Positions 50,711-60,396 of a stretch of 64,000 bases of DNA are shown piece by piece. The notes beneath the pieces are model-generated. The model was given only the letters and a program-made list of their open reading frames with translations, did not search any database and was not told where the DNA came from. The position numbers and the translations under genes are program-made. The number at the start of each line of letters is the position of its first letter. The stretch's first letter is position 1. This stretch comes from an uncultured Pirellulales bacterium (lineage in GTDB: Bacteria; Planctomycetota; Phycisphaerae; Sedimentisphaerales; Anaerohalosphaeraceae): the NCBI GenBank assembly GCA_964594065.1, contig CAZQKX010000002.1, positions 39,909-103,908 of the forward strand. Direction: 5' to 3'.

Positions 50711-51646
50711 ATGTGCTCCAAAACGATCACCGCGGTGATACCGGTCTATAACAGCGAAGAAAATCTTGAATTATTGTTAGCAAGGCTTTCCAGAGTTTTG
50801 GAAGAACATTCGGAGGCGTATGAGATTATCTTTGTCAATGACAGCAGCCAGGATGCGAGTTGGCAGGTTATTTGTGATCTGACTAATAAAAATCATTCGG
50901 CCAAAGGTGTCAATCTTATGCGAAATTACGGCCAGCATAACGCTCTTTTAGCAGGTATCCGCATGGCACAATATGAGCTGATCGTGACCATTGATGATGA
51001 CCTTCAGCATCCTCCTGAAGAAATCCCGAAAATGCTGAAAAAGCTGGATGAGGGACATGATGTTGTCTATGGCTCTGCAGAAGAAAAGAAACATGGTTTC
51101 TTAAGGAATTTTTCGTCTCAGATAACCAAGTTAGCCTTTCAATCGATCATGAAGGTGCAGGTTGCCCGAAAAATCAGTGCTTTTCGCGTTTTTCGAACAT
51201 CCCTGCGAAACGCGTTCGAAAACTACAATGCCCCCCATCCTTCGATCGATGTTTTGCTGTCTTGGGCCACCGTACGTTTTTCCTTCGTTGACGTCAGGCA
51301 TGAGGAGCGTGAAATCGGGAAATCAAATTATACTTTCAGAAAGCTCCTTGGCCATGCTATAAACATGATGACAGGTTTTAGTACCATGCCGTTACGAATC
51401 GCCAGTTTACTGGGATTCTTTTTTACATTATTTGGCATTGCTGTCTTTCTGTTCGTCTTCCTCCGTTATATGTTATACGGTGCCCCTGTACAGGGATTTA
51501 CTTTTCTGGCTTCAACAATTGCGATCTTTTCCGGTGTGCAGCTTTTTGTCTTTGGTATTTTCGGTGAATATTTGGCTCGCATGTATTCCAGAATTATGGA
51601 TCGCCCCACTTATATTGTACAAGAAATTAAAAAACATTCGGAATAA
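50711..51646 (+). CDS. ArnC/GtrB-like family-2 glycosyltransferase (polyprenyl-phosphate sugar transferase type, 2 C-terminal TM helices)
   Basis: AVIPVYNSEENL, YEIIFVNDSSQD, RNYGQHNALLAG, DDDLQHPPEEIP, EREIGKSNYTF, TMPLRIASLLG and GEYLARMY. As I recall E. coli ArnC, the two are colinear over the full length. Confidence 0.85.
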   Translation: MCSKTITAVIPVYNSEENLELLLARLSRVLEEHSEAYEIIFVNDSSQDASWQVICDLTNKNHSAKGVNLMRNYGQHNALLAGIRMAQYELIVTIDDDLQHPPEEIPKMLKKLDEGHDVVYGSAEEKKHGFLRNFSSQITKLAFQSIMKVQVARKISAFRVFRTSLRNAFENYNAPHPSIDVLLSWATVRFSFVDVRHEEREIGKSNYTFRKLLGHAINMMTGFSTMPLRIASLLGFFFTLFGIAVFLFVFLRYMLYGAPVQGFTFLASTIAIFSGVQLFVFGIFGEYLARMYSRIMDRPTYIVQEIKKHSE

Positions 51647-51667
51647 CCCCCACTTAGATGGCTGATA

Positions 51668-52462
51668 ATGTTTGAATTGCAGTACGAACCTTTAATAATG
51701 AATGAGAAACTGAAACCCTGGGAAATTGCGGTTATTCCCTGGGACTCAGAGAGTTTTGGTTTTGGGGTGTCTGCGTTGGAGCCGTGTTACGATGACAAGC
51801 AAAGTAATCAGGCTGCTTTGCTTGAGGATGCTTTGAAGGCTTATTGCCAAGACAAGCAGGTTCGGTTGATTACCGCTACAATTTCGTCTGATCAACATGC
51901 GGCATCTCTGCTATTGCAGAAGGCGGGATTTTATTTTATTGACCTGTCATTAAGTGTCCATTATGGGAATTTGAAAGATATTTCGACGGGCAGTCCCGCT
52001 GGTTTTTCTTTAACTATGGCAACTCCTGAGGAGATTGATGTGCTTGTGGAAATGGCAGGGCGTTCGTTCCAGCATGGTCGATATCACCTGGACGATTGTT
52101 TTCCCCGGCCTTTAGCCGATCGACGCTATGCCGATTGGCTGAGCCGATGCCGGGACTCCGACAACCCACAGCAAATTTTATGCGCAAGGATTCACGATGC
52201 GATCTGCGGTTTTTCAGTTGTGGAAAACAAGGGTTCTAAGGGCTATATGCATTTACATGCCCTTGATTCAAAATGGCGAGGAAAAAAACTCGGAACCGGT
52301 CTGATTTTACAATCGTTAGATTATTTGCGGGGCTTGGGGGCCGAGACCGCCGGAACAAAGATCTCGTCCTCAAATCTTAATGCGTTAAACATGCATTCTC
52401 GGCTAAATGGACGTTTTACCGCCGCGGACCGATTGCTGCATTGGCATCATCCAGAGAAATGA
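51668..52462 (+). CDS. WecD-like (dTDP-4-amino-4,6-dideoxyhexose) N-acetyltransferase, GNAT fold
   Basis: Blocks are colinear with E. coli WecD from memory: IPWDSESFGFGVS, LQKAGFYFIDLSLSV, SFQHGRYHLD...RRYADWL and NLNALNMHSRLNGRF. Confidence 0.6.
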   Translation: MFELQYEPLIMNEKLKPWEIAVIPWDSESFGFGVSALEPCYDDKQSNQAALLEDALKAYCQDKQVRLITATISSDQHAASLLLQKAGFYFIDLSLSVHYGNLKDISTGSPAGFSLTMATPEEIDVLVEMAGRSFQHGRYHLDDCFPRPLADRRYADWLSRCRDSDNPQQILCARIHDAICGFSVVENKGSKGYMHLHALDSKWRGKKLGTGLILQSLDYLRGLGAETAGTKISSSNLNALNMHSRLNGRFTAADRLLHWHHPEK

Positions 52463-52477
52463 TAACGGAGAACTAAG

Positions 52478-53650
52478 ATGAAAAAGATAGAACTTGCCGA
52501 CAGCAGGGGTGCAATAGAGCTGGCTTATGTGAGAAATATTGCTTATTTATTTGTTTTTTTCCTTTCCTTGTATCTTTATATCAATTGTCCCAAAGATGCA
52601 GACTTACATTTACATATTCGATTTATCGAAAAAATTGACCAGGGCCGCCTTGTTGTTCCGCACTTTCTTTATCACTTGGTTGTTTTTACTGTTTCCAAGG
52701 TTTCACATCTGTCTTTTCACTATGCTTCCTGCCTGGTACTGGCTTCGTGTATCGTTGCTTCGATGATTCTGATCGAGCGGATACTCAGGAATTTTCTGCG
52801 AGGCAGGTATTCTGATTACTTTGTACTTTTTGTTTCTCTATCGTTGATATTTGTGTCAGCGATTTATTTTCCACTGATTAATAAATATCCTTATAAGGTG
52901 ATATGGAGCCCTAATCCATGGCATAATCCAACATATATCGCCGCAAAGCCCTTTGTGCTATTGAGTTTTTATTGGTATACTTTGGAGATAACAAAGAAGG
53001 CGTGTTTTGAAAAGCGATTTTCGGTGATACGCATTTCACTGTTGCTGGTGATTTGTACTTTGATCAAGCCTAATTATGTCCTGGCATTCATTCCTGCTTC
53101 GATTCTTTTTTGTTTTTTTCAGTCCGACAAAATCCGAATGTTTCTCAAAACGGTGCAATTACTGTTACCAGTTTTAATCGTTCTGCTTTTGCAGTATTTA
53201 TTTACTTACTATTATGACGTGAAAGGTTCCAGTTCGATCCAATTTTGTTTTTTTGATGTCTGGCAGGGTCATGCAAAATCGCTGTTTTTGGCGATCTTGC
53301 AGGCGACGGCATTCCCGCTGGTTGCATTCATAGTGATGCGTCCTCGCCTGTCAGGAGATAAGATGTTCTTTTTCAGTTGGGTACTGTTTATCGTCGGATT
53401 ATTTATTTTTGGTTTTTTATGTGAAACCGGGCATCGAAGAGGTCATGCAAATTTTGCCTGGACCTACATGTTTTGTCTGAACATACTTTTTATCTATAGT
53501 ACAATTGTTTTTTTACGATGGATATCTGATATCCCTAAAGATAACAGAGCGTTTCAGATAAAACTATTTTTGTGCAGTATGACATTTTTAATCCATTTTT
53601 TTTCCGGCATCTATTATGTCGGATACTTGATGTCGGGACGGTGTTATTGA
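52478..53650 (+). CDS. Polytopic membrane protein (about 10-11 TM helices), function unknown (GT-C-like or flippase candidate)
   Basis: 390 aa and very AT-rich (20/60 G+C at 52561-52620). An early loop carries acidic residues (CPKDADLH). It is embedded between the WecD-like and WecE-like genes. Confidence 0.7.
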   Translation: MKKIELADSRGAIELAYVRNIAYLFVFFLSLYLYINCPKDADLHLHIRFIEKIDQGRLVVPHFLYHLVVFTVSKVSHLSFHYASCLVLASCIVASMILIERILRNFLRGRYSDYFVLFVSLSLIFVSAIYFPLINKYPYKVIWSPNPWHNPTYIAAKPFVLLSFYWYTLEITKKACFEKRFSVIRISLLLVICTLIKPNYVLAFIPASILFCFFQSDKIRMFLKTVQLLLPVLIVLLLQYLFTYYYDVKGSSSIQFCFFDVWQGHAKSLFLAILQATAFPLVAFIVMRPRLSGDKMFFFSWVLFIVGLFIFGFLCETGHRRGHANFAWTYMFCLNILFIYSTIVFLRWISDIPKDNRAFQIKLFLCSMTFLIHFFSGIYYVGYLMSGRCY

Positions 53651-53674
53651 ACCCAAAAGGAAAGGGAACAACAG

Positions 53675-54808
53675 GTGGCAACCTATCAAATACCTTTTAA
53701 TAAACCATGCTTTGAAGGCAAGGAACTGGTCTACATTGCCGAAGCAATAAGCCGGGGTCACATTTCCGGCGACGGCCATTTTACTCGAAAATGCTCAGAC
53801 TTTTTTGAAACAGAGATGGGATGTAAAAGAGCTTTGTTGACGACTTCCTGTACCCATGCTTTGGAAATCGCAGCTTTATTACTGGATTTAAAGCCCGGTG
53901 ATGAGGTTATTGTCCCCTCGTTCACGTTTGTTTCGACAGCCAATGCTTTTGCACTGCATGGGGCTAGGCTGGTTTTTGCCGATATTTGCCCGGATACGCT
54001 GAATATAGATCATGCCCAGATCGAAGAACTGATTACCGACAGAACCCGGGCGATCGTGCCGGTTCATTATGCCGGGGTAGGATGTGAAATGGATGATATT
54101 ATGGAGATTGCCAAACGCCACGATCTCCTGATTATTGAAGATAATGCACACGGTTTGTTTGGAAAATATAACGGTCAGTGTCTGGGGTCGATCGGTCAGA
54201 TGTCAACATTGAGTTTTCATGAAACCAAAAACTTTACGTGTGGAGAAGGCGGCGCGTTACTTATTAATGACTCTCAATATAAAGAGCGTGCGGAAATGAT
54301 ACGTGAAAAAGGAACCAATCGAAGCCAGTTCTTCCGAGGCGAAGTGGACAAATATACCTGGCGGGATATCGGTTCCAGTTACCTTCCCTCTGACATGCTG
54401 GCCGGTTTTCTTTATGCTCAGCTTGAGGGACGTCAACATATCATGGAGCATCGCAGACGAATCTGGAATTATTATAACGAGTCTCTGAACGAATGGGCTG
54501 TTTCCAAAGGAGTTCGTTTGCCGTTTATTCCATCACATTGTGAACAATCGTATCACATGTTTTATATGTTAATGCCGACGGCCGAAATGCAGCAAGCCTT
54601 TATCGAACATATGAAATCAAACGAGATCCTTTGCGTTTTTCATTATTTGCCCCTGCATCTTTCAGAAATGGGTAAACGATTGAGTATCCCCGAAGGAGAT
54701 TGTCCTGTTAGCGAAGATGTCAGCGGACGATTGGTAAGACTGCCTTTCTTTAATAGACTTTCCAATGAAGATCAGGAGTTGGTTGTCAAAAAGACAATTC
54801 AATTTTAA
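53675..54808 (+). CDS. wecE: dTDP-4-keto-6-deoxyhexose 4-aminotransferase, WecE-like (DegT/DnrJ/EryC1 family)
   Basis: IPFNKPCFEGKELVYIAEAISRGHISGDGHFTRKC, LLTTSCTHALEIAALLLDLKPGDEVIVPSFTFVSTANAF and the PLP-Lys context SFHETKNFTCGEGG. The N-terminus is very close to E. coli WecE as I recall it. Confidence 0.85.
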   Translation: MATYQIPFNKPCFEGKELVYIAEAISRGHISGDGHFTRKCSDFFETEMGCKRALLTTSCTHALEIAALLLDLKPGDEVIVPSFTFVSTANAFALHGARLVFADICPDTLNIDHAQIEELITDRTRAIVPVHYAGVGCEMDDIMEIAKRHDLLIIEDNAHGLFGKYNGQCLGSIGQMSTLSFHETKNFTCGEGGALLINDSQYKERAEMIREKGTNRSQFFRGEVDKYTWRDIGSSYLPSDMLAGFLYAQLEGRQHIMEHRRRIWNYYNESLNEWAVSKGVRLPFIPSHCEQSYHMFYMLMPTAEMQQAFIEHMKSNEILCVFHYLPLHLSEMGKRLSIPEGDCPVSEDVSGRLVRLPFFNRLSNEDQELVVKKTIQF

Positions 54809-55013
54809 GGCCAATATCGTGGAACAGATCAAATGTAAATTTATTGAAGCGTATCAGGAATGGGGAAGAACTTTTTGGATCTGTGTTGTTCTGAATTTGC
54901 TGGCGTTTTCGGGATATATTATTCATCTTACGTATGCCGTTGACGATTATGGGTCACTTTTTTCCAATGTCAGCCATGTTGTACACAGCCGTTGGTTTGC
55001 CGGCTTTATTTAT
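54803..55013 (+). repeat. Direct repeat, left copy (pairs with 56841-57051)
   Basis: The 201-nt core (54803-55003 versus 56841-57041) aligns without gaps with 8 mismatches by hand. This includes a 143-nt perfect run (54835-54977). Confidence 0.9.
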
Positions 55014-55028
55014 AGCCGAATCCATTGA
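54819..55028 (+). pseudogene. Truncated 5' copy of the GtrII/GT-C-like gene at 56857-58401
   Basis: It encodes VEQIKCKFIEAYQEWGRTFWICVVLNLLAFSGYIIHLTYAVDDYGSLFSNVSH..., nearly identical to the N-terminus of the 526-aa protein. It then diverges and stops at 55028. Confidence 0.8.
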
Positions 55029-55375
55029 GGTCTGTGCAAAAGCACTGATTGAAGACAACTCGGGACATAGTAATCCGAGTTTTCTTTTAAATTCTCAAAA
55101 AAACTGTCTGGAAAAGGGAAATATTGATAGTTCAAGATGAATTTGATAAAATTATTGGCATCGAAAGGACTGAATCTTGTCTTGTAAACACGTAAATGGG
55201 AAATCTCAGTCAGTACCGGACAACTTTGATGGACAGTCCGAAAAGGAAAAGAATACCCAAAAAGGTTGTCTGATCCCCTTTATTTTTCTCTGTGCAAAAC
55301 AGTTCCACCTTAATTCAAAGGTGATTCTGTCCAGCGCATGGGGACAACCTTAGATTTCAGTTCAAAGAACAGGCG

Positions 55376-56431
55376 GTGATCGTGAGCAATAAGCAAAAGG
55401 TATTATTTTTTCAGGGACTGAGATCCATTGCGTGTTTTGCTATTATGTTAGTTCATTTCATTTCAATTTTCAAACCCGGATCTTTAAAATACTGGACATC
55501 CGGGACATCGAGCATTTTTTTGGGAGCCTTTAAGGGAAAGGTTGCAGTTGCTTTATTCTGCGTCGTAGCGGGCTATTTCTCAGCTTCTAAAGTTTTTCAA
55601 ATGAAAAAAGACTTTCACTTTGGAAAATATATTTCCCGACGATACTTTCGATTCATGCCGCCGGTTTTATTGGTAAATATCTTTGTATATCTTGCTCACT
55701 TTTTGTATTCAAGTCTCGGCGCCGCCTATGGCCTTACTTCTCCTTATCAAAAAAAATTATTTTCTACAAGAGATATCATTCAAGACGCGCTGTTTTTTAA
55801 TAGCCAGTATAATTCCCCGCTGTGGATTTTAAGAGACTTATTTATTGGTTCCATTCTTGTTGCGTTTCTGGCTTATTATTTTGCTGATAAAAAGAAGAGA
55901 ATTTATGGTTACATCATTTCAATGTTATTTTTGATTGCCTGTGGGCAGTATTGCTTGATGACCTGTGTCATTGGCTTAGTTTTACGTGATGCTGTCATCA
56001 GTGATCTCGTCATAATAAAGCATAAGGTTGTATTGTCTTTATCCTTCCTTGTTGCTTGGTTTATGTGTCAACTGCCGCCCAAAAGTTTTTTGTCTGTAAG
56101 TTGCTTCGTATGGTATGCTTTAGGCACTGCTCTGATGATAGCAGTTATTTTTAATGTAAAAGTAATACAGCGGATTCTCTCCTTGAGACCATTGGTATTT
56201 CTGGGTGATATCTCCTTCTCTATGTATCTTTGGCACATTCCCATTTACAAGGTAATTCCTCCAATCATGTTTTTGGTTTTTGAAACAAAAATAGCTGCTG
56301 ATTTGCTGTTGATCGTTGTTTTTCTGGTTTCAAATTTTTGTATTGTTGGATTATCTTGTTTGTCCAAAAAATATATTGAAAAACTATTACCAGAAACCTT
56401 TGGAAAACTGTGCAATCGTGTATTCAGTTAA
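55376..56431 (+). CDS. Acyltransferase family 3 (OafA/WecH-like membrane O-acyltransferase)
   Basis: 351 aa with about 10 TM helices. The N-terminal motif GLRSIACFAIMLVHF is typical of acyltransferase-3. GTG start. Confidence 0.8.
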   Translation: MIVSNKQKVLFFQGLRSIACFAIMLVHFISIFKPGSLKYWTSGTSSIFLGAFKGKVAVALFCVVAGYFSASKVFQMKKDFHFGKYISRRYFRFMPPVLLVNIFVYLAHFLYSSLGAAYGLTSPYQKKLFSTRDIIQDALFFNSQYNSPLWILRDLFIGSILVAFLAYYFADKKKRIYGYIISMLFLIACGQYCLMTCVIGLVLRDAVISDLVIIKHKVVLSLSFLVAWFMCQLPPKSFLSVSCFVWYALGTALMIAVIFNVKVIQRILSLRPLVFLGDISFSMYLWHIPIYKVIPPIMFLVFETKIAADLLLIVVFLVSNFCIVGLSCLSKKYIEKLLPETFGKLCNRVFS

Positions 56432-56532
56432 AAACTAGTGAGTGAAATAAAGGTGTTCGGAATGCTCCGGAGAAAAACAGCGGGCTTCTGTTTGACGGCC
56501 GAACCGCGACGTTCTGAGACCCGGCGGATGAA

Positions 56533-56805
56533 TTGAGTATTTACAGTTGTCTGAAAAAGCGGCTTGGCCAGCGGGCCGAAACACGACAACTACTGATTAA
56601 CAGTGTAGATAACAAAATCCTTCTCGGGGTCCCCTCGGGGATCGGCATCTCCTGGCTTAATCGGCCCGAAGATGTAAAGGTGATAAAATCCAAATATCTT
56701 CTCGTTGATGAAACTAATGCTGAGTTACTAAAGAACTGTGCTTATTTAAAGTATGATCGAGCAACCTCGGTCGGGGATTTATATATTAATCAGCGGTATG
56801 AATAA
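56533..56805 (+). CDS. Doubtful small ORF inside the cassette (possible gene remnant)
   Basis: 90-aa ORF with a TTG start, no recognisable motif and no clear Shine-Dalgarno sequence. Local G+C is higher than the surroundings. Confidence 0.2.
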   Translation: MSIYSCLKKRLGQRAETRQLLINSVDNKILLGVPSGIGISWLNRPEDVKVIKSKYLLVDETNAELLKNCAYLKYDRATSVGDLYINQRYE

Positions 56806-56840
56806 CGGCAGGTTTTCGATTTGAGTGACCGAAGAAATAT

Positions 56841-57051
56841 TTTTAAGGCCAATATTATGGAACAGATAAAACGTAAATTTATTGAAGCGTATCAGGAATG
56901 GGGAAGAACTTTTTGGATCTGTGTTGTTCTGAATTTGCTGGCGTTTTCGGGATATATTATTCATCTTACGTATGCCGTTGACGATTATGGGTCACTTTTT
57001 TCCAATGTCAGCCATATCGCACACGGCCGTTGGTTTGCCGGTTTCATTTAT
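56841..57051 (+). repeat. Direct repeat, right copy (pairs with 54803-55013)
   Basis: See the left copy. This copy covers the start and the first about 65 codons of the intact 526-aa gene. Confidence 0.9.
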
Positions 57052-58401
57052 AACACATTGCTTCAAAAAAGTTATATGCCGACGTTATCGCCAATCATTG
57101 CTATTGTCTGTTACACTCTGACAGGGATTGGGTTATGCAAATTTTGGGATGTCAGGGGGAAATTGAGATGGATGGTCGTCGCCCTGTGGAGCCTGCACCC
57201 TTATCTTTTAGATGCATATAATTTCAGGATCGCAACGGTTAATCTCGCGATCGTATATCTGATCACGATTGTCGCTCTTTCACTGGTGCCAAAAGGAAAG
57301 AGGGCATTTGTTTTAGCGGTAGTGGTGTTTTACCTTGCACTTTCGATCTATCAGGTTGTTATCGGATTTGCAATTTCTGTGATTATGATACAGCTTTTAT
57401 TACAAAGCTATCGTAACAATTTTTCTTCTGAGTCATTGAAAGAAGGGGCAAAAACATTCTACAGCTATGTACTCATGCTTTTCTGTTCGCTTGTTGTGTA
57501 TGCGGTTTTAACCAAGGCGATTTTGATGGCCTTTGATATTCAGGTCAATTCTCGGCTCCAGGCCGGATTTATCACCAGTTTCGACCAGTTGTTTGTGAAA
57601 ATATGCTGGTTGATGACAATGCTGATACTTCGCCTGTCACCCATTAAAGAATTTGTTTTACCGGCAGTCGGCAAGTGGCTGATTTTTGTAATTATTGTCG
57701 CCGCGGTGATTTCCGTCTTCAAAAGGGGGGGCAAAAAACACAAGGCATTACCGGCGATTTTGTGGGTTTTTCTGATTCCAATCGGAGCGGTTTCTTTCAT
57801 GATTCCTTTAGCGAATTGGAATATACCATGGCGTATGTGTATGGGATTGGTTGTCTTTTTTGCGGGGATGTTTGCTTTGACACAGGAATCATGTTCGGCT
57901 GCTATTCGCAGAATCGCATTTATCGCAGGGGGTATTCTCATTGCTTATTTCATCTGCTCCAACAACACTATGATCTATAAACAGTCTCTGTGCAATCAAC
58001 GAGACATGTTGATGGCAAACCGGATCGTTACGAAAATACAATCCTTAGACCAGTATCAGCCGGGTATGGAACTGGCGATTGTCGGGAGACTTGAAAAAGG
58101 TCCTCAATTTGATAATACGGAAAAGAAATCATGGGAATATGTCAGGAAGTTCGTTAAGTACCAAAGCGAGAAAAGGTATTCGATAACTCGTAGTGCTTTT
58201 GAGACAGATTTGAGTAAGTATTCTATTTTATTGAACTATATGCAAGTTGATTTTCAATCTTCAGACAAGGCGGGTATAGAGAAAGCTCGGCAATGGTCCA
58301 TTGGGCGAAAATCCTGGCCGGACCCGTCATCGGTGTTTATTCAGGAGGATCTGGCTGTCGTGGTTCTCTCGCCGTATACCGATGAGCAGCGAGATATTTA
58401 A
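56857..58401 (+). CDS. Polytopic GT-C-type glycosyltransferase candidate (GtrII-like)
   Basis: About 12 TM helices with an acidic loop-1 motif YAVDDYGSLF...HGRWFAGFIY and a soluble C-terminal domain of about 130 aa. I prefer the ATG at 56857 (MEQIKRKF); the track TTG at 56821 is an alternative. The family call is from memory. Confidence 0.7.
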   Translation: MEQIKRKFIEAYQEWGRTFWICVVLNLLAFSGYIIHLTYAVDDYGSLFSNVSHIAHGRWFAGFIYNTLLQKSYMPTLSPIIAIVCYTLTGIGLCKFWDVRGKLRWMVVALWSLHPYLLDAYNFRIATVNLAIVYLITIVALSLVPKGKRAFVLAVVVFYLALSIYQVVIGFAISVIMIQLLLQSYRNNFSSESLKEGAKTFYSYVLMLFCSLVVYAVLTKAILMAFDIQVNSRLQAGFITSFDQLFVKICWLMTMLILRLSPIKEFVLPAVGKWLIFVIIVAAVISVFKRGGKKHKALPAILWVFLIPIGAVSFMIPLANWNIPWRMCMGLVVFFAGMFALTQESCSAAIRRIAFIAGGILIAYFICSNNTMIYKQSLCNQRDMLMANRIVTKIQSLDQYQPGMELAIVGRLEKGPQFDNTEKKSWEYVRKFVKYQSEKRYSITRSAFETDLSKYSILLNYMQVDFQSSDKAGIEKARQWSIGRKSWPDPSSVFIQEDLAVVVLSPYTDEQRDI

Positions 58402-58443
58402 CATTTTACGAAATGCAAAAAATGAGTCTACATTCGACAGCTG

Positions 58444-60396
58444 CTATTTTAGGTCACTCGGAGCAATAATACGGAAGCGGCCTTTTTCTGAAGTAAATAT
58501 TTCCTTAAGATCCGGGCTGTCTGTAGAAATTGCAATGTTATCATCCCGCACGACGACTAAAAGCTGGTGTTGTGTAAGGTAAGCGATGACTTCCTCCTCG
58601 GTTAGGGATTGTTGGTGCCCAAAAATGTTTTGTACGATTTGCTGCCTTCGGGAAAATTCCTGCTCATCATAGCCATGCATTTCTTTGATGCGCGATACAG
58701 TCATTTCGTAACCCGGTAGTTTTTGGCCATTATCAAATCCGACCCAAAGTGATCGCTGCGCGTAAACGGGAATTTTGGTTTCTTTATCCAGGAAAAAGGT
58801 GTTCATTGAGGAGTTCTTCCTGATCCATCTGTACATTGCATTTTCCTCGAGATCTCTGCTTTCCAGGCAGGTTCCATTCTCGTAATAGGGAGCGACATGA
58901 TCGATATCAAAAATGTTTCGAGGGGACGATTCGAACTGCCATCGGCACAGTTTCAGTGACGGCAGAGCCAGAATGAAAAACAAACCCAATGCCAGCCATT
59001 TTGAGTAATATTTTATTCGACAAAAGGCAATTCCTCCAATAATTCCAAAAGGCAGCAGGCTCAATAACAGAAATTTATATTCAACGCGAGCAGGGAAGCT
59101 GGAAAGCAAATAACAGGCCATATTGGACAGAAATAAACTTACCAGAAGGCATAGGTTTCGGCGATTGAGATTGTCGGCCAGGTATTTTCTAAAAAAGATA
59201 ATAATGGAAAGTGACAGAGAAACCGGAACAAGAAAGTTGAGACTATTACGAAAAAAATTCGACAGATTGAAAAACTCAACTTCCCAAAAGCCTCCGGAGG
59301 AAGAGATTTGCCTGAAATAGGGCAAAACGGCTAATACTGATATAATGGTCAGAACGAATAATGTCACAAAAGTCCGGCCGAATGCCCGGAAATCTTCACT
59401 TTTATATTGAGTTAGCCAAAACAGGGCAATGACACCAACCCAGGCAAGAATGCCCGGCCCAAAAGCGGCATAAAAGAATAAACTGCCGGTTGTTCCCAGG
59501 AGAATGAGAAAGCTGGAAAAAACGCTTTTTTTCTTTTCAAAAAGCTTCATTGTGCCATAGACCATGAGAAGAAAAAAAACAAGGCCTAACGGAATACCGT
59601 TATTGTTATGAAATTTGTTAAGAAGAGGAAAAGCTCGGGGCTCTCCGGTGTAAAATGGAAAGAAACCATGTATTTTTTGCATTGTACTGCTGGTAATAAG
59701 TGTCCCGCAGTAAATCGTAAAAACCGCGGAAAAGATGTTTATTTTTGGGTCATCGATCAACAGGCTCGAGATTTTGTACAAGAGCCACAGACAGCTTGCA
59801 AGTGACAAAACATTGATAATACCAAAAGAACTGAAGGGAGTTATGTTCAGTATTTTGGATAAAAAAGCAGCGGCCCAGGGATAACCCCATTGGTAGTGGA
59901 GAACCTCATCTCCAAATAGAGGATCTAAGGGAGGGCAATTGCCATTCATGATTTGGTAGACAACTTCTGCCCTGAAGAACGTATGAATAGAAGTTACTTT
60001 CATCTCAAAGTTATAGAGATACAAAAGAGCGGTCACCATGCAGCAGATAACGATAACCCACATCGGGTGCAGTTTTTTCTCAGAGAAAAAGAAGCGATAC
60101 AGGAATATGAAACCTGAGACTGTAAATATAGCCAACAGTGACCAAAGCATAAACAGGTGAAGTGCAATATCCTTCTTGATGGCCAGATAATGTTCTAACG
60201 GATATTCATGTTGAATGAGTTGATTGAAGAAGGGTAGTGAACGTTGTTCATAAATTGACCGGACGAAGTCATCCCCTGCCCAGGCAAATAAAATAAGGCA
60301 GGGGATCAGGACCAGGGAAATCGCAGAAAAACCGATCAGCAAAACCCGTTCAAGTCGGCTTAAGAGACTGTATTGATAAAGAAACAGTTTTTTCAT
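58444..60396 (-). CDS. Polytopic membrane protein, GT-C (ArnT/PMT)-like candidate, with a soluble C-terminal domain
   Basis: 650 aa with 12 or more TM helices. Loop-1 is LDPLFGDEVLHYQWGYPWAAAFLSKILNITPFSSFGIINVLSLASCLWLLY. It is AT-rich (19/60 G+C at 59521-59580). It starts 17 nt after the stop of the 984-aa gene. Confidence 0.65.
   Translation of the reverse strand: MKKLFLYQYSLLSRLERVLLIGFSAISLVLIPCLILFAWAGDDFVRSIYEQRSLPFFNQLIQHEYPLEHYLAIKKDIALHLFMLWSLLAIFTVSGFIFLYRFFFSEKKLHPMWVIVICCMVTALLYLYNFEMKVTSIHTFFRAEVVYQIMNGNCPPLDPLFGDEVLHYQWGYPWAAAFLSKILNITPFSSFGIINVLSLASCLWLLYKISSLLIDDPKINIFSAVFTIYCGTLITSSTMQKIHGFFPFYTGEPRAFPLLNKFHNNNGIPLGLVFFLLMVYGTMKLFEKKKSVFSSFLILLGTTGSLFFYAAFGPGILAWVGVIALFWLTQYKSEDFRAFGRTFVTLFVLTIISVLAVLPYFRQISSSGGFWEVEFFNLSNFFRNSLNFLVPVSLSLSIIIFFRKYLADNLNRRNLCLLVSLFLSNMACYLLSSFPARVEYKFLLLSLLPFGIIGGIAFCRIKYYSKWLALGLFFILALPSLKLCRWQFESSPRNIFDIDHVAPYYENGTCLESRDLEENAMYRWIRKNSSMNTFFLDKETKIPVYAQRSLWVGFDNGQKLPGYEMTVSRIKEMHGYDEQEFSRRQQIVQNIFGHQQSLTEEEVIAYLTQHQLLVVVRDDNIAISTDSPDLKEIFTSEKGRFRIIAPSDLK

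Follow-up and report, generated by a model that had tools for sequence, protein, structure and literature searches.

The glycan-modification island and its genes

The window, a stretch of 64,000 nucleotides from a metagenome-assembled genome (MAG) of the Sedimentisphaerales (Phycisphaerae, Planctomycetota), contains an AT-rich glycan-modification island in which the start of a glycosyltransferase gene, gtrII, is duplicated. Coordinates are those of the window, and all features lie on the plus strand except mem650. The genome comprises 3.86 Mb in 135 contigs, assembled from short reads as SPAdes-style scaffolds (N50 44 kb) whose gaps are runs of 10 or 100 Ns. The island backbone consists, in order, of genes for a GT2 putative polyprenyl-phosphate sugar synthase, a GNAT protein, a 390-amino-acid (aa) membrane protein (mem390), WecE and a convergent 650-aa membrane protein (mem650). 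The GT2 product matches PF00535 (8.2e-29) and over its full length resembles ArnC (193 bits) and PgfS (184 bits), although the equivalog cutoffs are far higher (529 and 500, respectively). The wecE-like gene (53675-54808, stop codon 54806-54808), the last of the GT2-GNAT-mem390-wecE series, encodes a sugar 4-aminotransferase of the DegT family (Pfam DegT_DnrJ_EryC1, 9.5e-89; NCBIfam PRK11706, 567 bits with a cutoff of 375), assigned by NCBIfam as a dTDP-4-amino-4,6-dideoxygalactose transaminase (1e-170). The right-hand backbone gene, mem650 (58444-60396, minus strand), encodes a polytopic protein and converges on gtrII; its orthologues in two congeners (63% identity in G002, 52% in G013) adjoin wecE or the acyltransferase gene described below. 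Neither mem390 nor mem650 has a match in Pfam or NCBIfam; a mem650 homologue in L016 matches DUF2298 weakly. No match to a GtrA-like family was found among the island ORFs in Pfam or NCBIfam. The island is predicted to encode a Gtr/Arn-style glycan-modification pathway.

The intact gtrII gene (56857-58401) encodes a GtrII/GtrC-type GT-C glycosyltransferase of 514 aa if it begins at the ATG at 56857, or 526 aa from the TTG at 56821, where the frame opens. Its match to PF14264 (Glucos_trans_II; 79.1 bits, cutoff 30, 4.2e-22) confirms what the sequence-only reading had proposed, that the right copy of the duplicated segment is the start of an intact GT-C-like gene. In the DD loop after TM1, D42 is invariant and D43 nearly so in 25 homologues; both are present, as is every other invariant residue of the family. 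A total of 29 homologues, at 31-58% identity, all lie in Planctomycetota-type MAGs, and the closest found in a search for same-species variants is only 58% identical. A gtrII-profile scan of the genome collection, built from a single peptide pattern, returned 4 loci. Two gtrII paralogues are present in G025, a related genome, and in L014 and L016 a GT4 gene is followed by gtrII.

The locus is variable, as had been suggested from the sequence: comparison of the three congeners that have it reveals differences in both gene content and order. In G002 the arrangement is wecE-AT3-<mem650, without gtrII, and in G013 it is wecE-> <-mem650 gtrII->. The gtrII genes of this genome (G000) and G013 are 59% identical in nucleotide sequence.

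The direct repeat and its left copy

The duplicated segment is an ungapped direct repeat of 212 nt, with its left copy at 54803-55014 and its right copy at 56841-57052, 2038 nt apart. The copies are identical at 202 of 212 positions (95%), and past the last of these positions their similarity falls to random. Repeat searching and position-wise comparison thus uphold the gapless repeat with a 143-nt perfect run claimed earlier, but extend it to 212 nt. Only these two copies exist in the whole genome (3.86 Mb, 135 contigs), and the other short direct repeats of the genome (C58, C36, C17 and C24) show no common pattern.

In left-copy numbering, the mismatches lie at 54818, 54819, 54830 and 54834 on one side and at 54978, 54980, 54982, 54987, 55004 and 55007 on the other, leaving a perfect core at 54835-54977. 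The edges differ by about 14%; with 10 mismatches among 212 positions, a run of at least 143 identical ones has a probability of about 1e-4. This significant concentration of mismatches toward the edges points to gene conversion, the favored explanation of the perfect core, or else to collapse by the assembler; a single scaffold assembly from short reads underlies both the phase of the two copies and the core. Edge erosion could also be mimicked, without gene conversion, by mutations that cluster near recombination junctions. A search for a second assembly of the same species found none, and an exact 41-mer from the core was absent from metagenome contigs.

Translation of the left copy gives a decaying 5' stub of gtrII (54819-55028), a 69-codon ORF that begins with GTG at 54819, 11 nt past the wecE stop, and ends with a stop codon at 55026-55028. 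The 69 aa carry TM1 and the AVDDYG loop, followed by HVVHS..SRIH and the stop. The invariant or near-invariant HIAHGRW..N of the family is altered in the stub alone (HIAHG to HVVHS, N to S, and then the stop), whereas the right copy fits the consensus. The early stop and the loss of the HIAHGRW motif agree with the earlier assignment of the left copy as a pseudogene, and it is best read as a dead stub. In L015, whose WecE is 80% identical, and in L010, gtrII follows wecE at a gap of 3-11 nt; the position of the stub therefore corresponds to a native junction that recurs. No counterpart of the stub is present in G002 or G013.

The DNA following the stub contains no detectable gtrII body or 3' end. 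An internal deletion in a once-complete left copy was rejected because this DNA is unlike either part of the gene, and a possible WPDP-like microhomology was attributed to chance. The genome contains no paralogues of the small ORFs in 55015-55375, and no source was found for 55015-55067, the segment just after the stub.

A patchwork between the copies

The acyltransferase-3 gene and the 90-aa ORF noted previously between the copies are both present. The remaining DNA had been described as noncoding, apart from the doubtful ORF90; both the noncoding DNA and the ORF prove to be recognizable relics. At least five junctions divide the interval, a patchwork made up of a member of a promoter-like element family, the right-end relic of an IS3-family insertion sequence, the acyltransferase gene (AT3) and the 3' relic of a GT4 gene. 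The idea that a clean 2-kb acyltransferase cassette was inserted through the repeat does not hold.

The -35 sequence of the promoter-like element (55068-55212), TTGATA, is at 55124 and is separated by a 17-nt spacer from an extended -10 sequence, TGATAAAAT, which ends at 55152. The element also includes a conserved leader. Eight copies are present in the genome, each 0-60 nt upstream of an ORF on the same strand, and the family was found in 11 of 22 genera. No conserved or covarying RNA structure was detected in the element. Matus-Garcia et al. 2012 reportedly described putative mobile promoters, near-identical upstream regions that precede unrelated genes. Like these, the element, a conserved block that spans about 145 nt and contains a strong sigma-70-like promoter, is located before unrelated genes in many genomes; unlike them, its conservation could instead reflect the binding site of a shared regulator (the palindrome CTTGATAGTTCAAG).

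The IS3-family relic (55292-55354) is a solo right end of about 60 nt that includes the terminal inverted repeat, and its outer end, 55354, lies 27 nt before the AT3 start. It was recognized by its similarity to sequences in other genera, being 95-98% identical to the ends of an element found there. A full copy of 1.41 kb in L076 contains OrfA, a -1 frameshift and OrfB (rve), with the order HTH_Tnp_1, A-run, HTH_21, rve and rve_3. This element has imperfect inverted repeats of about 50 nt, of the TG...CA type (IRL TGAGCGTGTCCCC.. and IRR ..GGGGACAACCTCA). The full L076 copy has the features of the IS3 family; the window has only the last 60 nt or so. With one end surviving, no target duplication can be read, and neither an intact nor any other copy of the element occurs in this genome. 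The homology with G002 starts exactly at the outer end of the IS. The spacer between wecE and AT3 in G002 was considered as a homologue of window positions 54809-55352, but the similarity did not exceed that of shuffled sequences. A structured-RNA gene was also considered for the noncoding parts but was rejected; the 165-nt candidate (fold z = -4.95) proved to be the 3' coding end of an IS3-family element plus its inverted repeat. Rfam searches of these parts gave only subthreshold noise, and no tRNA or tmRNA was found.

AT3 (55382-56431) encodes 349 aa and starts at the GTG at 55382, not at 55376. Its sole domain is PF01757 (2.9e-22; residues 11-323), with no fused SGNH domain. Motifs defined for this family, R/K-X10-H in TMH1 and RXXR in TMH3 (PMC7448272), appear as R14-X10-H25 and R87YFR and are present in three of three orthologues, so that the protein is predicted to belong to the Oac-like class of AT3-only carbohydrate O-acyltransferases. 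Among its three hosts, dS for AT3 is 0.39-0.48, compared with 1.3-3.0 for the neighboring genes. In the comparison of G000 with G002, the value for AT3 is 0.48, versus 3.0 for GT2, 1.27 for GNAT, 1.62 for mem390 (the composition-matched control), 2.03 for wecE and 2.56 for mem650. Furthermore, AT3 is 83% identical in nucleotide sequence to a lone copy on an unrelated contig, L031, where it lies between rhomboid and rsgA genes and has a GC content of 41% versus 51-62% in its flanks. In L031, the DNA that all three AT3 contexts have in common extends no further than the stop codon. No match to AT3 came from an exact-sequence look-up, and no close relative was found in metagenome contigs. The low dS and the lone copy in an unrelated organism support the earlier proposal that the acyltransferase was a later addition, and AT3 is a horizontally acquired gene that arrived after its neighbors.

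Downstream of AT3, tblastn identified the 3' relic of a GT4 glycosyltransferase gene (56452-56805), with an in-frame stop; a 51-aa stretch has 35 identities with residues 288-338 of the 381-aa product of a GT4 gene on contig C14. ORF90 (56533-56805) is the tail of this relic. G002 shares roughly the first 110-140 nt of the relic, likewise downstream of AT3. The AT3-GT4 relic junction is thus present in a congener that lacks both gtrII and the repeats, which indicates that AT3 and the relic moved as a pair, either earlier than the duplication or independently of it. The relic was also compared with the tails of the GT4 genes upstream of gtrII in L014 and L016, with no detectable similarity.

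Origin of the duplication

No inverted repeats flank the 2-kb unit, and no integrase, transposase or tRNA lies in or near the island. The only trace of a transposon or IS boundary is the one-ended 60-nt IS3 relic, and it lies inside the unit. The length of the duplication, 212 nt, far exceeds that of the target duplications made by transposases. An integron cassette is not what is found either, since AT3 is followed in both G000 and G002 by a GT4 coding relic and no integrase was found; nor is a site-specific phase-variation switch, since the repeats are direct and no recombinase is encoded in the neighborhood.

Two kinds of recombination resemble the structure more closely. Campbell-type integration of a circular DNA carrying a 5' gene fragment gives an identical topology, with a left copy truncated at its 3' side, a complete right copy that has a foreign upstream region, and direct repeats of the homologous fragment on both sides of the insert. 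However, the left boundary of the repeat coincides with the gene's own start region, which is unexpected for a random fragment; the divergence between the copies is significantly nonuniform rather than uniform; and the unit has no known circular form, replication gene or recombinase. In displacement arrays, such as those of orphan T6SS immunity genes and Rhs/CDI 3' tips, homology-anchored illegitimate recombination is one-sided and leaves a fragment of the displaced gene beside a new intact copy, with short direct repeats of the conserved part (PMC5361080). Here, by contrast, the relic is an upstream 5' stub, so that the anchor would lie on the 3' side, and only one round of displacement would have occurred.

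Taken together, these results make it probable that the structure is a recombination scar, left in a variable and AT-rich island by an acquisition associated with IS and HGT, and such a scar is ordinary but well preserved gene shuffling rather than a new type of element. In this model, a foreign or mobile block comprising the promoter element, the IS3 end, AT3 and the GT4 3' end would have come to separate wecE from the working gtrII, while a 212-nt copy of the gtrII start remained at the old wecE-proximal position. Gene conversion would then keep the central 143 nt equal to the working gene as both edges erode. The duplication would have been made when the AT3 block entered, either by single-crossover (Campbell-type) integration of a circular intermediate or by homology-anchored illegitimate recombination displacing the resident gtrII. 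However, in G002 AT3 and the GT4 relic occupy the corresponding place and the repeats are absent, so that the arrival of AT3 is not necessarily what made the duplication; its source may be single-crossover insertion, displacement of the resident gtrII or erosion of a second copy. AT3 would now be driven by its own promoter-like element, and RecA-type recombination between the repeats could delete it and restore a wecE-gtrII operon.

Erosion without any insertion has also been considered. An ancestor with two full gtrII genes (paralogues or alleles) flanking AT3 and further genes could have suffered successive deletions that took away most of the left copy, the IS and the GT4 gene and left the repeat, with gene conversion homogenizing the core. 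The gtrII stub, the IS end and the GT4 tail, three independent relics within 2 kb, do imply repeated deletion, and G002, whose GT4 relic is shorter and ends at the mem650 stop, resembles a further-deleted version. The pair of gtrII paralogues in G025 also favors this account, and from the GT4-gtrII order in L014 and L016 the surroundings of the right copy may be native too. This account is nevertheless unlikely: the backbone is much older than AT3 and the relic attached to it, which means a late entry for that part at least; the sequence behind the stub shows no remnant of the gtrII body or 3' end; and the edges diverge by only about 14%, when unconverted ancient paralogues should differ far more (59% identity between the G000 and G013 genes). 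There is a slighter chance that the structure is an artefact, in which a 143-nt exact repeat was threaded in the wrong phase, strain variants were merged or the core is a collapsed consensus; with wrong phase or merged variants, the true population would have wecE-gtrII lacking the cassette, together with some other arrangement. The short-read, SPAdes-style scaffolds with their N50 of 44 kb invite this suspicion, and the assembly graph at such a repeat would be a simple loop, also compatible with an excised state. Yet exact repeats of 212, 221 and 542 nt are resolved inside contigs of the same assembly, and the distinguishing variants that flank the core are 144 nt apart, so that ordinary reads or pairs can phase them. 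In addition, the alternative phase requires a 2-kb circle without a replication gene at chromosomal coverage, and the repeat edges pass smoothly into unique sequence in a window with zero Ns.

It seems very doubtful that the arrangement is functional, that is, that RecA-mediated deletion or tandem amplification of the 2,038-bp unit switches O-acylation off or up in subpopulations or that the 69-aa stub works as a small membrane protein. With 143-212 nt, the direct repeats have sufficient length for homologous deletion or amplification, the predicted deletion product is an intact wecE-gtrII operon as in L015 and L010, and the evidence for gene conversion means that the copies do interact. However, deletion would be irreversible, which does not allow true phase variation; the stub is missing in congeners and has lost invariant residues; and neither a recombinase nor inverted repeats are present. 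Were the repeats, against such long odds, a RecA-dependent contingency device that continually deletes or tandemly amplifies the acyltransferase unit, with the core kept by gene conversion and the switch thereby kept usable, the population would be mixed for surface-glycan O-acylation, for example as a bet-hedge against phages.

Among the known systems most like the island are the serotype-converting modules for O-antigen modification of Shigella and Salmonella, gtrA-gtrB-gtrC with the AT3-only acetyltransferase Oac. The two share a GT2 that is anchored in the membrane at its C-terminus and is putatively GtrB/ArnC-like here, a serotype-specific GT-C of PF14264 and a separately mobile AT3-only O-acyltransferase with R-X10-H and RXXR intact (PMC7448272), and both are AT-rich, patchily distributed and horizontally exchanged. 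Unlike those systems, the island has no recognizable gene for a GtrA-type flippase and is not on a prophage, and its host is an uncultured member of the Planctomycetota. The sugar is probably a 4-acetamido-4,6-dideoxyhexose rather than glucose, given the presence of WecE and a WecD-like GNAT.

The structure opens no new mechanism and settles no open question. It does expose traps for annotation: the 87-aa and 90-aa ORFs are relics, and the AT3 start was mis-set. Above all, it provides an example of how a surface-glycan locus is rebuilt in an uncultured lineage of Planctomycetota, in which the Gtr/Arn-like backbone stays in place while the acyltransferase gene moves between distant hosts, in the company of an IS and a possibly portable promoter, and gene conversion would keep the dead stub of the displaced or duplicated transferase partly fresh.

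The island and its genomic setting

The island occupies about 50.7-60.4 kb of the window, itself C2:39909-103908 of a 3.86-Mb genome (G000; 135 contigs, 99.6% complete), and its G+C content is about 40%, compared with about 52% in the flanks and 47% in the genome. It encodes a GtrB/ArnC-like GT2 (50711-51646), a GNAT protein with weak similarity to WecD (51668-52462), a membrane protein of 390 aa that matched no family (mem390), a WecE-type aminotransferase scoring above the NCBIfam equivalog cutoff (wecE, 53675-54808), an Acyl_transf_3 protein (AT3, 55382-56431), the GtrC-type GT-C gtrII (PF14264, Glucos_trans_II; ATG at 56857, frame from TTG 56821), and a convergent gene for a 650-aa membrane protein (mem650). 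No tRNA, integrase, or transposase genes were found near the island. From the taxonomic labels of homologues, the organism belongs to the Planctomycetota, class Phycisphaerae, order Sedimentisphaerales.

Of the 15 genomes of the genus surveyed, only 3 have the island, and these differ in layout. The order in the congener G002 is GT2-GNAT-mem390-wecE-AT3 followed by mem650 on the opposite strand, with neither gtrII nor the repeats. In the congener G013, wecE is followed by an oppositely oriented mem650 and then by gtrII and a GT4 gene. The genomic surroundings of the whole island also vary between genomes (the window versus loci L013 and L008); here (50711-60396) it is flanked by nadB and a DUF5060 gene, and in G002 an M48 peptidase gene lies on the left. 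Given these varying neighbourhoods and its presence in so few genomes, the island is itself likely to be mobile or often lost.

The two copies of the gtrII start

A repeat search and alignment confirmed the two-copy direct repeat described in the sequence-only reading and placed it at 54803-55014 and 56841-57052. The copies are 212 nt long, align without gaps, are spaced 2038 nt apart, and are 95% identical, with 202 of 212 positions agreeing base by base; beyond the repeat their similarity decays to random, and G000 as a whole contains just these two. The right copy is the beginning of the intact gtrII. The left copy starts inside the last two wecE codons, and its ORF opens at GTG 54819, 11 nt past the wecE stop, and ends after 69 codons; TM1 and the AVDDYG loop are retained. 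In place of the HIAHGRWFAGFIYN found in the right copy and in 25 family members, the left copy has HVVHSRWFAGFIYS and then SRIH-stop. Judged from this replacement, the left copy is a decaying stub rather than a conserved small gene, as its earlier description as a pseudogene had it, and no counterpart was found in the two congeners having the island (G002 and G013). The stub occupies a recurrent native position of gtrII behind wecE; the gap between the two genes is 3-11 nt in locus L015, whose wecE is 80% identical in amino acids, and in L010 of genome G025.

The ten mismatches between the copies fall into two groups, four at 54818-54834 and six at 54978-55007, which leave a perfect run of 143 nt (54835-54977). 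If 10 mismatches were placed uniformly over 212 positions, a run of at least 143 would be expected in about 1 in 10,000 such placements. The edges of the repeat differ at about 14% of positions (10 of 69), including residues that do not vary in the family, and the decay of the stub has therefore been going on for a while. The simplest account of the perfect core is gene conversion from the working gtrII, already raised as one option from the run itself; conversion would be unable to reach the ends of the homology, and the edges would thus erode. Alternatively, mutations may have clustered at recombination junctions, or an assembler may have collapsed near-identical k-mers.

The DNA between the copies

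The 2-kb acyltransferase cassette proposed between the repeats is not a clean one: the interval contains a promoter-like element, a relic of an IS3-family element, AT3, and a relic of a GT4 glycosyltransferase gene. The promoter-like element (55068-55212, about 145 nt) has a palindrome, CTTGATAGTTCAAG, that overlies its -35, then a spacer of 17 nt and an extended -10 (TGGTAAAAT); its leader, about 55 nt long and ending in TAAATGGGAAATGTCAG, is conserved. G000 has eight copies, the others being at C53:16237-16336, C67:6480-6587, C23:36904-37040, C23:24458-24528, C13:29766-29829, C13:41949-42016, and C5:23793-23835, and a same-strand ORF begins 0-60 nt downstream of each. The genes behind them are unrelated, most encoding secreted proteins. 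The element occurs in 11 of the 22 genera of the family at 76-86% identity, and it is conserved despite saturated coding dS between congeners; a search for conserved RNA structure in this family of elements found none. It is a candidate for either a shared regulon site or a mobile promoter, and AT3 probably has its own promoter.

Many related genomes contain a repeat, often located where contigs end, and the IS3-family relic (55292-55354) shares 95-98% identity with the final ~60 nt of that repeat. A full copy of 1.41 kb (L076, G059:C22:1-1410) carries OrfA (HTH_Tnp_1), an A-run frameshift, and OrfB (HTH_21, rve, rve_3) between the termini IRL (TGAGCGTGTCCCC...) and IRR (...GGGGACAACCTCA). The window retains the right end only, and no further copies were found elsewhere in G000. 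The outer end of the relic, 55354, sits 27 nt upstream of the AT3 start, and DNA homology to G002 starts exactly there. Several genera of the family carry the 1.41-kb element (85-98% identity), one genome having as many as 13 end copies, and the element often breaks contigs. Its 3' 165 nt had been considered as a structured RNA (z = -4.95), a candidate dropped once the full copy was seen. In another genus (G015), right ends of the element lie directly upstream of defence-type genes (L066, G015:C38:149-2245; L067, G015:C66:180-1678), which encode an HsdS fragment, a Cthe_2314-like HEPN protein, and a SIR2_2 protein; two of these ends are 1.9 kb apart in direct orientation.

AT3, whose start (55382) was fixed from the G002 orthologue and the called protein P0030, is of the AT3-only type and has kept the R-X10-H and RXXR motifs, as PMC7448272 defines them, intact. 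Between G000 and G002, synonymous divergence (Nei-Gojobori) is saturated for the backbone (GT2, 3.0; GNAT, 1.27; mem390, 1.62; wecE, 2.03; mem650, 2.56), whereas that of AT3 is only 0.48. Composition is not the cause, since mem390 is similarly AT-rich. A third copy (dS 0.39-0.46; 83% nucleotide identity, limited to 55363-56432) stands alone between rhomboid and rsgA on a contig of an unrelated organism, where AT3 has 41% GC and its flanks 51-62%; the flanking genes have nothing close in G000. The low dS relative to the backbone and this lone copy show that AT3 is a horizontally moving gene, which arrived in these loci long after the backbone diverged.

Behind AT3 lies the 3' relic of a GT4 gene (56452-56805), which contains an in-frame stop and, compared with residues 288-338 of a 381-aa GT4 encoded on contig C14, is identical at 35 of 51. 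The 90-aa ORF called doubtful in the sequence-only reading is the tail of this relic. Since the first ~110-140 nt of the relic are common to G000 and G002, AT3 and the relic moved together as a unit. The G002 version of the relic is truncated exactly at the mem650 stop. Positions 56432-56575 are ~80% identical to 7588-7705 of L013 (G002:C33), and the relic is more conserved between the two genomes than are AT3 synonymous sites (pS 0.35). This conservation may reflect some 3' element (a terminator, for instance) or may be sampling noise in a comparison over 100 nt.

Origin and meaning of the duplication

The topology is that of a 3'-truncated stub, foreign DNA, and a complete gene preceded by foreign sequence, and we regard an insertion or displacement scar as the probable, though by no means certain, explanation. 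A single crossover could have inserted a circle bearing the gtrII start. Alternatively, homology-anchored illegitimate recombination could have imported the IS, AT3, and the GT4 relic, perhaps with gtrII, displacing a resident gtrII, a route that parallels a model put forward in PMC5361080 for T6SS immunity and Rhs arrays. The left repeat boundary coincides with the natural start region of gtrII, which favours one gene standing behind two different upstream sequences over a random fragment. A GT4 gene directly precedes gtrII in loci L014 and L016, so the context of the right copy could also be native.

Erosion alone, starting from a longer ancestral locus with two gtrII copies, seems unlikely. 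An assembly artefact is less likely still. Gaps of 10 and 100 Ns, together with an N50 of 44 kb, do indicate short-read scaffolds; however, the same assembly resolves internal repeats that are exact over 212-542 nt, there are no Ns in the window, and just 144 nt separate the variants flanking the core, and consequently misassembly is not favoured. No second assembly of the species was found in the collections searched. Least credible is a functional switch, such as the reversible loss of AT3 that had been raised from the repeats. The original observation was correct and its interpretation partly right. Other short direct repeats with nearly identical copies, separated by a few hundred to 2,000 nt, occur in G000 at C10:74470-76022 (542 nt, exact), C58:12292-14407, and C1:2754-3519; a quick look at the ORFs of the C58 pair showed no pattern in common with the gtrII repeat.

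In function, the island appears to resemble the enterobacterial gtrABC/oac serotype-conversion modules, in having a PF14264 GT-C, an AT3-only gene for a putative acetyltransferase that is mobile on its own, and a GT2 that is a candidate carrier-lipid synthase. It differs from them in lacking a recognisable GtrA, in its probable amino-sugar chemistry of the WecE/WecD type, and in not being carried by a phage. The repeat structure is a kind of scar that is already known. As a consequence of it, gtrII would now lie 2 kb away from the operon in which it sits elsewhere, and recombination between the repeats would irreversibly delete AT3, re-forming a wecE-gtrII operon with a GTG start.
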